A stretch of DNA of 64,000 nucleotides from Candidatus Campbellbacteria bacterium. GTDB lineage: Bacteria > Patescibacteriota > Minisyncoccia > Phycocordibacterales > EsbW-18. The stretch spans positions 478,503-542,502 of the forward strand of contig CP064977.1 in the NCBI GenBank assembly GCA_016699465.1. The letters are read 5' to 3'. The notes beneath the pieces were generated by a model. The model was not told the origin of the DNA, did no database searches, and saw nothing but the letters and a program-made list of their open reading frames with translations. Made by a program: the position numbers and the translations under genes. Below are positions 3,667 through 41,731 of this stretch, piece by piece (positions within the stretch are counted from its first letter, which is position 1; every line of letters begins with the position of its first letter).

Positions 3667-4074
3667 TTATTTTTCAGTTAACCGGTATATTCTATGCCAT
3701 CGACCCCGACCTTGCGGTGGAAGACCTGCACGTAACATATATTCAATATCTTTCCAAAAATGCAAATTTCTCTTTTCAAGAAAGCAAACAAGTTGAGCGA
3801 TTCTTTTAAATTCCGTTGCTGCAGAAAACCGTTGGGCCGTTGAAATACTCAGACCAAGAATCTCACTCACCCTTCTCACCGGAACACCTTTTGATAACAA
3901 GTGAATTGCGGCAAGACGTTTTGCAAGCATAATTCGTTCGGTTTTTGTAAGCAGTCCGTGCACTAATAAAAGCGCATCCTTTGTTTCATTGGCACGAGAT
4001 ACGTTATGCACCAAATCACGAAAAATCGTTTGAAGAACTTTCTCGGAAATCTTTTTTCTTGAAACGTGCGGCAT
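3667..4074 (-). CDS. TrpR/YerC-family helix-turn-helix regulator
   Basis: The C-terminal part of the 218 aa track ORF starts at MPHVSRKK. It contains LLTKTERIMLAKRLAAIHLLSKGVPVRRVSEILGLSISTAQRFS, which fits the Trp-repressor/YerC HTH pattern. The upstream part of the ORF is low-complexity read-through. Confidence 0.6.
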   Translation of the reverse strand: MPHVSRKKISEKVLQTIFRDLVHNVSRANETKDALLLVHGLLTKTERIMLAKRLAAIHLLSKGVPVRRVSEILGLSISTAQRFSAATEFKRIAQLVCFLEKRNLHFWKDIEYMLRAGLPPQGRGRWHRIYRLTEK

Positions 4075-4080
4075 ACATAA

Positions 4081-4100
4081 TGTACCGATATATCGGTACA
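4081..4100. promoter_or_regulatory. 20 bp perfect palindrome TGTACCGATATATCGGTACA, a candidate autoregulatory operator
   Basis: It begins 7 bp upstream of the ATG of the TrpR/YerC-like gene, in the region divergent from the HIT gene. Confidence 0.55.
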
Positions 4101-4185
4101 GACTAATATAAAGTAGTAAACTAAAGGAAATATAAAGAACGTGGTCTTGTATTGAACCATATAAAAAGACTATACTAATCGGTAT

Positions 4186-4590
4186 ATGACAGACTGTATT
4201 TTTTGCAAAATCGTTTCGGGAGAGATTCCTGCAGAAAAAGTGTATGAGGACGAACACACTCTCGCCTTTTTGGACCTTCACCCGAGCAATCCAGGTCACA
4301 CACTTGTTGTACCAAAAGAACATTCACGCAACGTGTTGGATAGTCACCCAGATACCCTTACACACATGATTCATACTGCACAAAAAATTGCCGTGGTCTT
4401 AAAAAATATTGGAGCTGAAGGAGTCAATATCATTTCAAATAATGAAACCGCTGCAGGCCAGGTAATCTTTCACACACACCTGCATATCATTCCCCGCTAC
4501 ACAGATGACGGACTCGCACTATGGCATGGAAAACCATATCCTGAAGGTGAAATAGAAAAGATGGGAGAAAAAATACGGAATGCTCTCTAG
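4186..4590 (+). CDS. HIT-family (histidine triad) nucleotide hydrolase
   Basis: CIFCKI...FHTHLHIIP carries the HxHxHxx histidine triad. Confidence 0.85.
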   Translation: MTDCIFCKIVSGEIPAEKVYEDEHTLAFLDLHPSNPGHTLVVPKEHSRNVLDSHPDTLTHMIHTAQKIAVVLKNIGAEGVNIISNNETAAGQVIFHTHLHIIPRYTDDGLALWHGKPYPEGEIEKMGEKIRNAL

Positions 4591-4603
4591 GTAGGTACAA
4601 ACA

Positions 4604-4642
4604 AGCCCCGTTCCGCACGAATGCGGAACGGGGCTTTGTATT
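4604..4642. terminator. Bidirectional intrinsic terminator
   Basis: AGCCCCGTTCCGCA-cgaa-TGCGGAACGGGGCT is a 14 bp perfect stem followed by TTTGTATT. It lies between convergent genes. Confidence 0.6.
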
Positions 4643-4683
4643 CAACAGGTCTGGAATCTCGAAGGCAGGTCACCCAGAACCAC

Positions 4684-4968
4684 CTAAGGTTCCTTGGACA
4701 ACTCCCTGTTCGGCGAACCCCCATCGGAAAAAATGGGAGACCTCTCCGGAACCTCGACGCCGCAAATGGTATCGAGAACACTCTCGCCTGTCACCGGCTG
4801 CTCAACCTTCCGAAGCAGTCCCGGCGCATCGGCAAGAAGGACGCCGAGCTCCTCGCGACTCAGGCGGACAGTTCCACCATTGTCGTCCGCGATCACGAAG
4901 AAGCCTTCGTCATACGCGAGTGTCGGACAACAATCCGACGAATGACACAGGGTAATCGCGAATTTCAT
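4684..4968 (-). CDS. Hypothetical small protein, GC-rich, with a strong RBS
   Basis: A 94 aa ORF starting MKFAITL, preceded by AGAAAGGGGGTGGA before the ATG. GC is high and the gene is not conserved-looking. Confidence 0.45.
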   Translation of the reverse strand: MKFAITLCHSSDCCPTLAYDEGFFVIADDNGGTVRLSREELGVLLADAPGLLRKVEQPVTGESVLDTICGVEVPERSPIFSDGGSPNRELSKEP

Positions 4969-30106: not shown

Positions 30107-30232
30107 GTCCTATGCCGCAGTGGTGTAGGACCTTCTTCTTGTCTAACTTTACTCAGTAAGAGAGGATTTGGTCACGTGTAATTTTCTGCTGAAAATTCAC
30201 GCGACCCCGGCTCGGCCCGTCGGCCTCCGCCT

Positions 30233-30249
30233 TTCAAATCCTCTCCTGC
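30233..30249. repeat. 17 nt inverted copy of the tRNA-Leu 3' end (TTCAAATCCTCTCCTGC)
   Basis: It is the exact reverse complement of the T-loop-to-acceptor segment of the tRNA-Leu gene 56 bp away. Confidence 0.7.
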
Positions 30250-30304
30250 TCGTTACATACTGAATACAAAAAAGAATGGCATAGGCCATTCTTTTTTGAT
30301 TCTG

Positions 30305-30388
30305 TGCGCAGGAGAGGATTTGAACCTCCAAGCCCTTGCGGGCGCTACCACCTCAAGGTAGTGCGTCTACCAATTTCGCCACCTGCGC
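30305..30388 (-). tRNA. tRNA-Leu (GAG)
   Basis: Cloverleaf built by hand with a long variable arm. Anticodon loop CTTGAGGT/ TTGAGGT, with GAG in the centre. Confidence 0.85.
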
Positions 30389-33519: not shown

Positions 33520-33592
33520 GGGCGCTTAGCTCAGTTGGTAGAGCAACTCTTTTACACAGAGAAGGTCGGGGGTTCGAATCCCTCAGCGCCCA
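33520..33592 (+). tRNA. tRNA-Val (TAC)
   Basis: Cloverleaf built by hand. Anticodon loop TTTACAC. One A-A mismatch at the base of the anticodon stem. Confidence 0.7.
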
Positions 33593-33596
33593 CAGT

Positions 33597-33640: not shown

Positions 33641-33898
33641 GTGCTAAGGGATTCAAAAGGCGCAGACACACCTCCTGTGAAAGATGAAATGCCGAGCCAT
33701 GGTCGCGAACACTTTACATTTTGGCGCGCATGCGACAAAAAGCTTAGTGATTCATAACCGAATCCCCCACACAAACAAAGAAACGAGGCATGCAGTGTTC
33801 TGCAACTATTGGTTTGTGTAGCGCTGAGGGATTCGACAAAGAAAATTTCTTTGAAACGAACAAAAAATATTGACCAGAAGCAGGTTTTTTGTTTTTTG

Positions 33899-40181: not shown

Positions 40182-40361
40182 AGTAATAGAAGTTGGAAGT
40201 TAGTGGTGAAAGTTAGAGATTAGTTTGGAACTTGGTCAGGGGAAATACAAAAAGTGTACACATATACGATAGCACATTTACTCCTTGCTCAAAGTCCACT
40301 TTGTTAGTATCTTCTTGGTACCAGTGGAGCAAAAGACCCATTATTGCTACACTAGGTTTAC

Positions 40362-40447
40362 GGAGGAGTCGGATAGTGGTTTATTCCAGCGCACTTGAAA
40401 TGCGCCGTGCCCACAAGGCACCGTGAGTTCGAATCTCACCTCCTCCG
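40362..40447 (+). tRNA. tRNA-Ser (TGA)
   Basis: Cloverleaf built by hand. Anticodon loop CTTGAAA and a long variable arm. Confidence 0.85.
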
Positions 40448-40449
40448 CA

Positions 40450-40491
40450 ACGATTCACAAGAAGTGCCCTTCGGCACTTCTTGTGAATCGT
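40450..40491. repeat. Perfect 19 bp stem hairpin with a CTTC loop immediately 3' of tRNA-Ser
   Basis: ACGATTCACAAGAAGTGCC-cttc-GGCACTTCTTGTGAATCGT. No U tract follows. Confidence 0.7.
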
Positions 40492-40502
40492 CTACTAGGG
40501 CG

Positions 40503-40518
40503 AGGTGAGATTCGAACG
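40503..40518. repeat. Inverted copy of the tRNA-Ser T-arm/acceptor segment (GAGGTGAGATTCGAAC)
   Basis: It is the exact reverse complement of GTTCGAATCTCACCTC from the tRNA-Ser gene. Confidence 0.65.
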
Positions 40519-40617
40519 ACGGAGCGATATTTTGTCAGTAGACAAAATCGCGAGTCGGTGCCCAGACAAATTTTTTTGACGACAAAATTTAGTCGCGGGA
40601 GAAAAACGTACTCGTGG

Positions 40618-40633
40618 TCTCACCTCCTCCGCA
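40618..40633 (+). repeat. Direct 16 nt copy of the tRNA-Ser 3' end (TCTCACCTCCTCCGCA), a candidate att-site scar
   Basis: It is identical to the last 16 nt of tRNA-Ser, 171 bp downstream. An intrinsic terminator follows at 40648-40668. Confidence 0.65.
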
Positions 40634-40765
40634 CCTGATGCAAAAATGCCCCGCAAGGGGTATTTTTTGTGTCAGGAGGACGAGATTCGAAAGTCGGACC
40701 GAGCAAAGCGAGGGAGACGGGGTCGAGAACACTTAGGATTTTTGATTCCAATGGAAGCAAAAATA

Positions 40766-40802
40766 CTTAGTGATTCGTGACCGAATCTCACCCCTACCGC
40801 CA
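40766..40802 (+). repeat. Degenerate second copy of the tRNA-Ser 3' end with a conserved CTTAGTGATTC arm
   Basis: CTTAGTGATTCGTGACCGAATCTCACCCCTACCGCCA. A homologous unit follows tRNA-Val at 33746-33775 (CTTAGTGATTCATAACCGAATCCCCCAC). Confidence 0.5.
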
Positions 40803-40807
40803 AAATT

Positions 40808-41125
40808 ATGAAGTGGCTCATACCCATCAGTATCCTCGTATTGTTTGAACTCATTGCAGATGTTCTTGCAAAAAACTGGTCCCTACGAGGAGGTTGGCTA
40901 CTTGCCGGAGGAGCGCTAATCGCATATTTTCTTGCAAACACCTTTTGGCTTTTTGCCCTTCAGAACGGCGCCGGTCTTGCTCGGGGTGCCGTAATTTTTT
41001 CTGTAGCTTCTGCCATTCTTGCCGTCGCACTCGGACTTTTTGTATATCACGAACCACTTACGTACTACGAGATAGCCGGCGTCCTGCTTGGTCTCCTTGC
41101 CATAACCCTCATTTTTTGGAAATGA
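40808..41125 (+). CDS. Small 4-TM transporter of the DMT/SMR superfamily (EamA-like half)
   Basis: 105 aa with four hydrophobic helices. Confidence 0.55.
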   Translation: MKWLIPISILVLFELIADVLAKNWSLRGGWLLAGGALIAYFLANTFWLFALQNGAGLARGAVIFSVASAILAVALGLFVYHEPLTYYEIAGVLLGLLAITLIFWK

Positions 41126-41155
41126 GCTTATAATAAAAAGGCCTGAACACTTACC

Positions 41156-41731
41156 ATGCACGCTTTATTTTTTCAGTATCTTGAAACCTACCGCCTATTT
41201 GCGTACGCAGTTATTTTTATTGGTCTTCTTCTCGAGGGAGAAGTCACCCTCTTTCTTGCGGCGTTGTTGGTGCACCAAGGTTTTTTAAATTTATATGACA
41301 CCCTTGCTCTGACATTGCTTGGGGTTTTTCTCGGGGATCTTCTGTGGTTTACCTTGGGAGAGCACCTCTCGTTATATAAAAAAATCAGTGCATGGGTTGA
41401 AAGAGAGGCGGGACGATTTGATCACATCTTCCAAGCACACACATTCAAATCACTTTTGGTTACGCGTTTTTTGTACGGGCTCAGTCGACCAACACTCATT
41501 CGTATGGGCATGCTTCGCATCCCAATTAAAAAATTTCTTGAAGCAAATATAGTCACAACGCTCGTATGGTCCTCTCTTGTGTGGATTATTGCCTACGCAT
41601 TGAGCGCCTCTATCCTTTCAACACGACATTTCATACCACGCCTCGAAGCAGGTATTGCGCTCATCATTATTGCCATCATTGTTCTCAACAAACTCGCCCG
41701 ACGGTTTATTGAAAAAGGACTTCTTGAATAA
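41156..41731 (+). CDS. DedA-family (SNARE-associated / TVP38) membrane protein
   Basis: YAVIFIGLLLEGEVTLFLAALLV DedA signature. Confidence 0.8.
   Translation: MHALFFQYLETYRLFAYAVIFIGLLLEGEVTLFLAALLVHQGFLNLYDTLALTLLGVFLGDLLWFTLGEHLSLYKKISAWVEREAGRFDHIFQAHTFKSLLVTRFLYGLSRPTLIRMGMLRIPIKKFLEANIVTTLVWSSLVWIIAYALSASILSTRHFIPRLEAGIALIIIAIIVLNKLARRFIEKGLLE

Follow-up and report, generated by a model that had tools for sequence, protein, structure and literature searches.

A structured element whose closing helix copies the 3' end of the neighbouring tRNA gene lies, very probably in tandem, behind tRNA-Ser(TGA) of a Campbellbacteria genome

The window analysed here is a stretch of 64,000 nucleotides from a Candidatus Campbellbacteria bacterium (GCA_016699465.1, contig CP064977.1, positions 478,503 to 542,502 of the forward strand); all window coordinates are counted from its first letter. 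A tRNA-Ser(TGA) gene is located at 40362-40448 (+), as identified by ARAGORN, by the Rfam tRNA model (53.4 bits) and by alignment with relatives. The gene ends in G73-CA, CCA not being encoded, and belongs to a divergent type, designated type B, with the acceptor GGAGGAG/CTCCTCC. Downstream, its 3' part (40427-40449, D0) recurs in a series of copies. The segment that follows, 40450-40802, very probably consists of two tandem copies of a conserved structured element of ~150 nt, a diverged unit 1 and a canonical unit 2. The element is laid out as a 5' hairpin (Hp) followed by a three-way junction. The junction is closed by a helix, P1, with a 5' strand (I) and a 3' strand (D), and carries a variable arm, P2-P3, and a long, nearly invariant arm with conserved bulges, P4-P5.

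In unit 1, the Hp module (40450-40491, +) is a perfect 19-bp stem with a minimum free energy (MFE) of -32.2 kcal/mol (z = -10.9), whose arm occurs a single time within the 64-kb window (0.02 expected). The original prediction, made from the sequence alone, had described this stem with a UUCG-type loop; the stem is as described, but its loop reads CUUC, which differs from a C(UUCG)G tetraloop. Among the 5' hairpins of the family, this one is unusually long. The 5' strand of P1 (I1, 40502-40517, +) is complementary to 40427-40442 at 16/16 positions, and the 3' strand (D1, 40618-40633, +) is an exact 16-nt copy of 40434-40449, including G73-CA. An exact 16-nt repeat and a perfect 16-nt inverted repeat inside 200 nt are far beyond chance. 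The fold of 40502-40635 is closed by the I1/D1 helix, in which 40502-40510 pairs with 40618-40626, and the diverged core, with P2, P3 and a degenerate P4/P5, spans 40506-40609 (+). A second strong fold, D0-H1-I1 (-65.4 kcal/mol), was computed and is mutually exclusive with P1 of unit 1.

Unit 2 starts with an imperfect hairpin of ~17-20 bp (Hp module, 40634-40676, +) with a GCAA loop and a T run (-21.5 kcal/mol, z = -5.6), a combination that is also terminator-like. Its I strand (I2, 40675-40689, +) has a core, GAGATTCG at 40682-40689, that pairs with 40782-40789, and a 5' extension, GGAGGAC, that matches the complement of the type B acceptor. The canonical member itself (40681-40791, +) contains P1, a J1/2 of AAAG, P2/P3, the invariant P4 (GGGGTCGAGAAC...GTGATTCGTGAC) and P5, a hairpin at 40730-40772. 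Folded alone, its MFE structure is the consensus fold (z = -4.3). The D strand (D2, 40782-40802, +), CGAATCTCACCCCTACCGCCA, is a copy of the 3' end of another, type A, tRNA-Ser and includes CCA; five nucleotides separate it from the ATG at 40808 of a 105-aa EamA-like gene. D2 had been taken for a degenerate last copy of the tRNA end. It is not a decayed copy of the tRNA in the window, but is identical at 19/19 positions to the 3' end of tRNA-Ser(TGA) in a related species (locus L005). The CTTAGTGATTC noticed in front of it is the invariant 3' strand of P4. The 12-mer GAATCTCACCYC occurs three times, against 0.47 expected. Apart from the loop and the nature of D2, the tRNA gene, the hairpin and the inverted and direct copies are all present, at or within 1-2 nt of where they had been placed.

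Both units belong to a family that extends well beyond the window. A search pattern derived from unit 2, GGGGTCGAGAAC-N(20-50)-GTGATTCGTGAC, is present in more than 120 metagenome contigs among the matches listed. A covariance model (CM), R1, was built from 40 of these metagenome copies, the window sequence being left out. With R1, unit 2 reaches 92.5 bits (E = 1.8e-23) and unit 1 reaches 29.5 bits (E = 4e-6 over the 64-kb window, 1.5e-8 locally). The P2, P3 and P4 of unit 1 are kept by compensatory changes, with CCC/GGG for GUCG/UGAC and GAC/GUC for GAA/UUC. The A, G and A bulges of P4 are retained in unit 1 when the alignment is read by eye.

The consensus fold was obtained with RNAalifold from 45 copies. 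It consists of P1 (I/D), a short J1/2 with the consensus (G)AAAG, a P2 of GNC/GNC separated by a purine-rich internal loop from P3, a variable hairpin, and a P4-P5 arm with the consensus GUCG-A-GAACACU.../...AGUG-A-UUC-G-UGAC. The apparent invariance of P4 is biased by the way the family was gathered, namely with an exact pattern of two blocks. In this MAFFT-based alignment, compensatory changes were found in 22 of the 34 pairs. Among 121 CM hits, 94.0% of the cells are paired, compared with 72.5% in shuffles and 28-36% in slid-partner controls; double changes occur at 34/34 modelled pairs, and the covariation score is 0.524 vs 0.158. These last values are somewhat inflated, the 121-hit alignment being fitted to R1, and the independent 45-copy result agrees with them. 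On the tRNA-sense strand, G-U/U-G pairs outnumber A-C/C-A pairs by 191 to 45 (87 to 42 without the invariant G-U of P4), indicating that the structure is read on the strand of the tRNA. The Hp stem is exactly 9 bp long in 59/111 copies, with CUGC as its commonest loop (33 of the 111). In most copies, 11-12 nt separate the end of Hp from that of the P1 5' strand, a distance that is ~13 nt in unit 2 and 23 nt in unit 1. No convincing kissing interaction between the CUGC loop and the GCAG/GGAG internal loop was seen by eye. Hammerhead and hairpin-ribozyme cores were also compared by eye and neither fits the junction strands, and no Rfam ribozyme model matched in the window region or the canonical loci.

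Two further copies are present in the window. One is located behind tRNA-Val(TAC) (33520-33593), at 33647-33768 (+), with 56.4 bits (E = 1.6e-13) and CGAATCCCCCACA as its D strand. The other, behind tRNA-Leu(GAG) (30304-30388, -), occupies 30161-30243 (-) and scores 51.4 bits (E = 3.9e-12); it has a short P5, GUG/CAC in place of GAA/UUC in P4, and the closing strands I = GGAGAGGATTTG and D = CAAATCCTCTC. All four window copies (4/4) stand on the same strand behind a tRNA gene, and in each the 3' strand of P1 copies the 3' end of that tRNA. The four are strongly diverged from each other. About 50 nt downstream of the tRNA-Val copy lies an orphan inverted copy of the tRNA-Val 3' end (33816-33837, TGTGTAGCGCTGAGGGATTCGA, ~20/22 complementary), followed by CAAAG and a small hairpin. 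This may be the stump of a second, decayed unit.

The same association is found across the family. A tRNA on the same strand lies at most 400 nt upstream of 71 of the 132 pattern copies listed; the element usually begins directly after it, and among the matches listed these tRNAs cover 16 amino-acid types. The CM hits give a similar picture, with a same-strand tRNA within 450 nt upstream in 83/121. Given ~45 tRNA genes per 0.8-Mb genome, chance adjacency is estimated at a few per cent at most. The hosts, placed by the proteins of the contigs and sampled on a few contigs, are Campbellbacteria, Kaiserbacteria and 'Patescibacteria group' genomes.

The element commonly occurs in tandem, as pairs or triplets. 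In L029, five identical head-to-tail units with a 136-nt period were observed (4042-4701, -), D (CAGTTA) running directly into the next Hp. Another locus, L110, contains a group I intron (Rfam, 69.5 bits).

The element family is absent from Rfam. A search of Rfam 15 (gathering thresholds, and E <= 10) with the window region, L005, L132 and 14 canonical loci returned only tRNAs and chance miRNA-like hairpins. The two-block pattern had no match in viral contigs, nor had a canonical copy any match in phage and plasmid collections. The literature, searched by topic and by the two invariant blocks, yielded no description of the element.

The D strand reproduces, at the DNA level, the neighbouring tRNA gene from C56 of the T-loop to N73-CA, and I is its complement. 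Together, Hp and the closing helix explain all direct and inverted repeats of the tRNA end behind tRNA-Ser, as well as the long hairpin there. D shares at least 10 nt with the upstream tRNA 3' end in 27 of the 71 tRNA-linked copies among the matches listed, and the complementarity of I to the tRNA 3' end, N73-CA included, often reaches 12-19 nt. When I is compared with the tRNA and with D, the tRNA gives the better match in 26 cases and D in 17, and the two match equally well in 13. Hp interrupts I in many copies, at the boundary between acceptor and T-stem, as in TGCGGAGGATG-Hp-TGGGATTCG against a tRNA-Ser ending in ...CGAATCCCACATCCTCCGCA. As modelled, such a split I and its D would form an acceptor-like helix, Hp and an extended T-stem, the "loop" of which is the core.

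In about half of the copies P1 is short (4-6 bp), mostly UGUG/CACA, with CUGCG/CGCAG behind tRNA-Trp with G73. These short helices also mirror C72-N73-CA. D retains the N73-CA of the gene, sometimes with the next flanking bases, in 26/29 cases and has CCA in two; it was therefore copied from DNA and not from a mature tRNA, and a retro-origin, in which D would be the mature CCA end, is ruled out. Cores that are 96% identical are joined to different P1 helices. As a general feature, 125 of 169 tRNA genes, with or without an element, end in N73-CA, one C short of CCA; of the seven tRNA genes in the window, only tRNA-Lys has an encoded CCA. Such ends suggest an unusual 3'-end maturation signal.

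Relatives were reached through a flanking 152-aa protein. They keep the promoter, tRNA-Ser(TGA) and tRNA-Arg(GCG), while the surroundings of the tRNAs vary, and in L002, L005, L009, L012 and L015 no window-like repeats follow tRNA-Ser. In a low-stringency blastn of 40200-40810 against the relatives, 40712-40742 (31 nt, 93.5%) and 40760-40784 (25 nt, 96%) matched a segment behind tRNA-Arg(GCG) in L005 and L006. One core thus stands behind two tRNAs, with I and D matching the local tRNA each time. The window and L002 each have a copy linked to tRNA-Val. Behind tRNA-Arg(GCG), three lineages carry the element, their 152-aa protein being 65-80% identical to that of the window, and six lack it. Among these orthologous copies, D follows the substitutions of its own tRNA-Arg in L006 and L012 (CCTACCGGGGGC vs CCTGCCGAGAGC), and the D of L010 differs at two positions. 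The element has thus been long retained at orthologous loci, while individual copies are dispensable.

This dispensability is visible within a single species. L006 and L004/L008 belong to one species, their 152-aa protein being identical, and differ by the clean presence or absence of a 148-bp block. The occupied allele, in L006, reads tRNA-Arg ...CGATTCCTACCGGGGGCACA, a 23-nt spacer, CCGGTGGGAATCGAA, ~90 nt, GTGAC, CGATTCCTACCGGGGGCACA and the flank, where CCGGTGGGAATCGAA matches the T-loop, T-stem and acceptor start of the tRNA in inverted orientation at 14/15 positions. The empty allele of L004/L008 has a single CGATTCCTACCGGGGGCACA 20-mer, so that the boundaries lie exactly at the 20-nt direct repeats. 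Insertion between these repeats and deletion between them would each explain the difference. In L005 (GCA_964631485.1), a run of N at 4768-4867 lies exactly between two copies of the post-element sequence; the 20-nt tRNA-end repeat probably misled the scaffolding here.

The tRNA-Ser locus has a history of its own. Type B tRNA-Ser, with its different D-arm and variable arm, is common to the window and L010 only, the other relatives having type A. D0, I1, D1 and I2 are of type B, D2 is of type A, and a remnant of an upstream element associated with type A is left at ~40324-40339. The simplest reading is that recombination replaced the tRNA-Ser region and that one crossover fell within the conserved core of unit 2. 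In L010, a gene for an HNH endonuclease (PF13392/PF01844; 2335-2892) lies between the conserved promoter and tRNA-Ser, and type B may represent a replacement of the tRNA gene driven by a homing endonuclease.

Upstream of tRNA-Ser, L005 (3828-3937, -) and L009 (2798-2888, -) contain an element of ~105 nt, of which the window and L003 keep only a deleted remnant. It is composed of a copy of the first 18 nt of the tRNA, a long hairpin with a family-like AAACUGCUUU tip that covaries between L005 and L009, and a conserved GACCGAAGGGAGGTGGRAGACCCGAC; in L005, it ends with the 3' strand of the acceptor. These upstream elements have no R1 match and no Rfam match, and were rejected as family members, only the Hp-like hairpin being in common.

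In L002, L005, L009 and L010, the 3' end of tRNA-Ser abuts the next start codon. The start codon follows the tRNA-Ser 3' end, or D2 in the window, by 0-5 nt (L002 5999-6003, L005 3738-3741, L009 2708-2711, L010 2333-2337, window 40802-40810), which leaves no room for a ribosome-binding site. This suggests mRNA 5' ends made by tRNA processing, that is, leaderless mRNAs by tRNA punctuation. The 105-aa EamA/SMR-like gene downstream is followed by a ~190-aa gene (window 40808-41731; L138-L142), and the pair also occurs in other genomes of the candidate phyla radiation (CPR) without a tRNA in front. In those genomes, the ~190-aa gene equals the VTT/DedA gene of the window in size. The 105-aa gene is missing from L002, where tRNA-Ser directly abuts VTT; among type A genes, this tRNA-Ser alone has an encoded CCA, as D2 does. 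The idea that the 105-aa gene was inserted relative to L002 was set aside; the gene pair is recurrent in CPR genomes, and L002 therefore probably lost the gene. The VTT protein of the window is 100% identical to one encoded on an 811-kb contig of a Candidatus Campbellbacteria genome, and a scan of the genome collection with it retrieved only an unrelated Campylobacter locus.

Parts of this architecture are shared with known systems. Bacterial small RNAs derived from the 3' external transcribed spacer (3'ETS), such as 3'ETS-leuZ, are expressed from tRNA transcripts. Like these RNAs, the element lies directly 3' of a tRNA on the same strand, where it presumably shares the tRNA promoter and processing enzymes. 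Plant dicistronic genes for a tRNA and a small nucleolar RNA (snoRNA), processed by RNase Z, are mentioned in PMC12045711 as cited there, and have the same arrangement. In contrast to the element, neither the 3'ETS RNAs nor the tRNA-snoRNA genes are known to be built from copies of tRNA ends or to form a conserved multi-helix family behind many different tRNAs.

In its split form, with the acceptor 5' strand, Hp and T-stem 5' strand paired to D, the element resembles a collapsed tRNA in which acceptor and T-stem are stacked. It is in this respect comparable to YrlA, the plant mitochondrial t-elements, mascRNA and the tRNA-like domain of transfer-messenger RNA (tmRNA). Here, however, a core of ~100 nt replaces the T-loop and the helix covers N73-CA, leaving no free acceptor tail. 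No Y RNA, tmRNA or tRNA family of Rfam hits the element, and ARAGORN finds no tmRNA in the window. T-box riboswitches also pair a segment with a tRNA 3' end, and the base opposite the discriminator follows the tRNA, as it does here (CGCAG/CUGCG in copies behind tRNA-Trp with G73, CACA/UGUG behind A73 tRNAs). The element differs from them by matching the N-CA form of the gene instead of NCCA, by having neither a specifier loop, a T-box sequence nor an Rfam T-box hit, and by its position downstream of tRNA genes instead of upstream of aminoacyl-tRNA synthetase genes.

Among repeated elements, Rickettsia palindromic elements (RPE), Correia elements and miniature inverted-repeat transposable elements (MITEs) are likewise multicopy, ~100-150 nt long, foldable and sometimes polymorphic. 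In the family described here, by contrast, I and D are not constant among copies but correspond to the local tRNA, compensatory changes occur in all helices, and position and strand relative to the tRNA are fixed. A derivative of a MITE or transposon was rejected, as I and D differ and covary between copies and the direct repeat, from ~4 to 21 nt, has no fixed length. The primer-binding sites of long terminal repeat (LTR) elements share a stretch of 12-20 nt complementary to the 3' end of a specific tRNA from the T-loop onwards. They differ in that the element has N-CA and not CCA, no reverse transcriptase or LTRs, and a D that copies gene and flank. A retron or tRNA-primed retroelement was discarded since no reverse transcriptase is found among the neighbouring open reading frames (ORFs) and D has the gene-type N-CA in 26/29. 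CPR genomes also contain CRISPR arrays and tandem interspaced guide RNA (TIGR) arrays, the latter composed of 36-nt box C/D-type guides beside Tas genes (PMC12045711), and tandem arrays of structured units are thus a common trait. The units of the element are 120-150 nt long, stand behind tRNAs and have no associated protein gene; unit size, tRNA position and the absence of a Tas-like partner gene rule out identity with TIGR arrays.

The original prediction had explained the repeats as scars of serial integrase-mediated insertion, that is, as attL/attR remnants left by repeated integration and excision of integrase-bearing elements at the 3' end of tRNA-Ser. The direct repeats do run from the T-loop to the end of the tRNA, the sublocation used by some tyrosine integrases, the tRNA is left intact, and one pair of occupied and empty alleles (L006 vs L004/L008) exists, as at true attachment sites. 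Pfam scans of 20 ORFs over ~32-53 kb, however, revealed only housekeeping genes and no integrase, recombinase or transposase. The inserts, without cargo, consist of 130-170 nt of conserved non-coding sequence, and the same core of 130 nt is found behind tRNAs of 16 amino-acid types among the matches listed, which excludes a tRNA-specific integrase as its source. The inverted copies have no place in an att model because they are the 5' strands of a covarying helix, obligatorily paired with the direct copies, and the hairpin is likewise part of the conserved fold. Classical att scars are thus highly improbable. Other suggestions of the same prediction fared better. A structured non-coding RNA was among them, and a conserved, covarying family was found; a miniature element was another, and the unit measures ~150 nt. 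A comparison of occupied and empty sites in relatives had been proposed, and L006 is occupied and L004/L008 are empty, with boundaries at the 20-nt tRNA-end repeats. By the terms of the prediction itself, a conserved tRNA-associated RNA with covariation and with invariable occupancy would speak against insertion; conservation and covariation are found, whereas occupancy is variable, a divided outcome.

The main competing explanation is a selfish, non-autonomous mobile element, at the RNA or DNA level, that settles behind tRNA genes. I would serve as its guide or primer-binding site, D would be the duplicated target, and the core would be needed for propagation by machinery encoded elsewhere. 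We consider this a real possibility, although the odds are clearly against it. It is in agreement with the presence/absence polymorphism exactly at 20-nt direct repeats, the patchy occupancy of one tRNA locus across relatives, the multicopy nature and tandem arrays (five identical units in L029), the 96% identical cores with different, locally matched P1 helices, and the excess of cases in which I fits the tRNA better than D (26 vs 17). Sites with a conserved structure and a variable sequence are also typical of elements recognized as folded nucleic acid, for instance attC. On the other hand, no transposase, reverse transcriptase, integrase or recurrent gene is present in the flanks, up to ~5-10 kb per side, and the viral contigs, phages and plasmids searched contain no copy. 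The strong divergence among the window copies argues against a recent burst, orthologous copies persist at 65-80% protein identity with a D that tracks the host tRNA, the "empty" site is equally explained by deletion between direct repeats, and the gene form of D (N-CA and flank, 26/29) disfavours a tRNA-primed retro-origin. A folded single-stranded DNA site involved in recombination or replication, like attC or the ends of IS200/IS605, would account for the tolerance of G-T pairs in folded DNA and for repeats at tRNA ends, deletion and duplication as DNA-level events. To our knowledge, DNA recombination sites of this kind are simple hairpins. The junction of ~120 nt with several helices, conserved bulges and internal loops and a fixed 9-bp hairpin is RNA-like, multi-helix junctions with conserved bulges being typical of RNA; the strand is always that of the tRNA transcript, and the neighbouring ORFs scanned provide no recombinase linked to the element. 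A DNA-level site is accordingly very unlikely. A cis-regulatory RNA of the riboswitch or attenuator kind, in which pairing of I with D0 or D controls read-through or the processing of the downstream mRNA, has a little more in its favour: the mutually exclusive D0-H1-I1 and P1 folds of unit 1, the 5 nt between D2 and the EamA-like start codon, and the start codons abutting tRNA-Ser in relatives. Riboswitches with three-way-junction aptamers, a variable P1 and tandem arrangements are known. Such a role is still unlikely, as the downstream genes are unrelated, many copies precede a terminator instead of an ORF, no gene family is associated over 120 clustered loci, and D0-Hp-I pairing would unfold the tRNA. 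Att scars, an attenuator and a DNA-level site are all less likely than the selfish element and the reading favoured below.

The favoured reading, which we hold at somewhat better than even odds, is that of a tRNA-linked RNA element that mimics, or pairs with, the tRNA 3' end. Its transcript would arise through tRNA read-through, or would be processed out of the tRNA transcript, and the element would act as an RNA. P1, together with the outer extension pairing the acceptor 3' strand, could present a tRNA-specific mimic of the acceptor/T-arm or act as an antisense to that end. The P2-P5 core would be the functional part, a protein-binding or catalytic platform, with a role in tRNA 3'-end biology such as processing, decoy or quality control; this functional layer is put forward tentatively, as an idea that is itself in doubt. 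Short-patch gene conversion, selection, or both may hold D and I matched to the tRNA, and the D0/D repeats would drive occasional deletion and tandem duplication.

Several observations weigh against this reading. Often, tRNA and element are separated by a terminator of the Rho-independent type; the tRNA-Val and tRNA-Leu loci of the window are examples. No promoter for the element was found in the window, so that the case for transcription is built on read-through and the strand bias of G-U pairs. Copies are dispensable, the tRNA-Arg(GCG) copy being absent from six lineages against three with it and polymorphic within one species. With a P1 of 4-6 bp, of the CACA/UGUG type, in about half of the copies, tRNA-end mimicry is not the whole story. 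Since I pairs through N73-CA, the end is paired and there is no free acceptor tail, which disfavours a simple substrate of RNase P or of aminoacylation. The 96% identical cores with different P1 helices fit exchange or mobility as well as they fit function. Clustering of the downstream and neighbouring genes over 120 loci gave no recurrent partner; an HTH protein occurs in eight of them and a CCA-adding enzyme in six, the latter looking like local synteny. The helix-turn-helix (HTH) protein, ~225-240 aa long with the domain (HTH_23 and others) at its N-terminus, is encoded ~450 nt downstream of the element in these eight loci. Its C-terminal part is LAGLIDADG-like by eye, and in L034 its gene (608-1336) lies between one element copy and the next tRNA with its element.

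A more speculative view, to which we give little weight, is a tRNA-templated system without precedent, which could take two forms. In one (form a), the element is an RNA-guided homing element, I programming its insertion behind, or recombination with, a matching tRNA gene. In the other (form b), it is an encoded "spare part" or decoy for tRNA 3' ends, which repairs or protects tRNAs attacked at their 3' halves. D begins exactly at C56 of the T-loop, right after the invariant GUGAC, and in this second form it would be released by cleavage at C56 (GUGAC/C) by a ribozyme or an enzyme.

CPR bacteria, or Patescibacteria, represent a large share of bacterial diversity, with tiny genomes (~0.8 Mb here), and their non-coding RNAs are almost uncharted. 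The element occurs in at least four copies in 64 kb and in more than 120 metagenome contigs among the matches listed, and its covariance model, R1, is suited for inclusion in RNA family databases. Pseudo-att sites and tRNA fragments behind CPR tRNA genes, a recurrent puzzle in annotation, find their explanation in the element. For an RNA whose closing helix copies, and co-evolves with, the neighbouring tRNA gene, no described counterpart was found. If the element acts on tRNA ends, the maturation or protection of tRNAs would have a layer specific to this lineage, in organisms where tRNA genes mostly end in N73-CA and not in CCA. If it is mobile, it would be a parasite that finds its sites by the most conserved sequence of tRNA genes. 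If it is tRNA-templated, in either of the two forms, RNA biology centred on tRNA would gain a new class, one specific to CPR bacteria.

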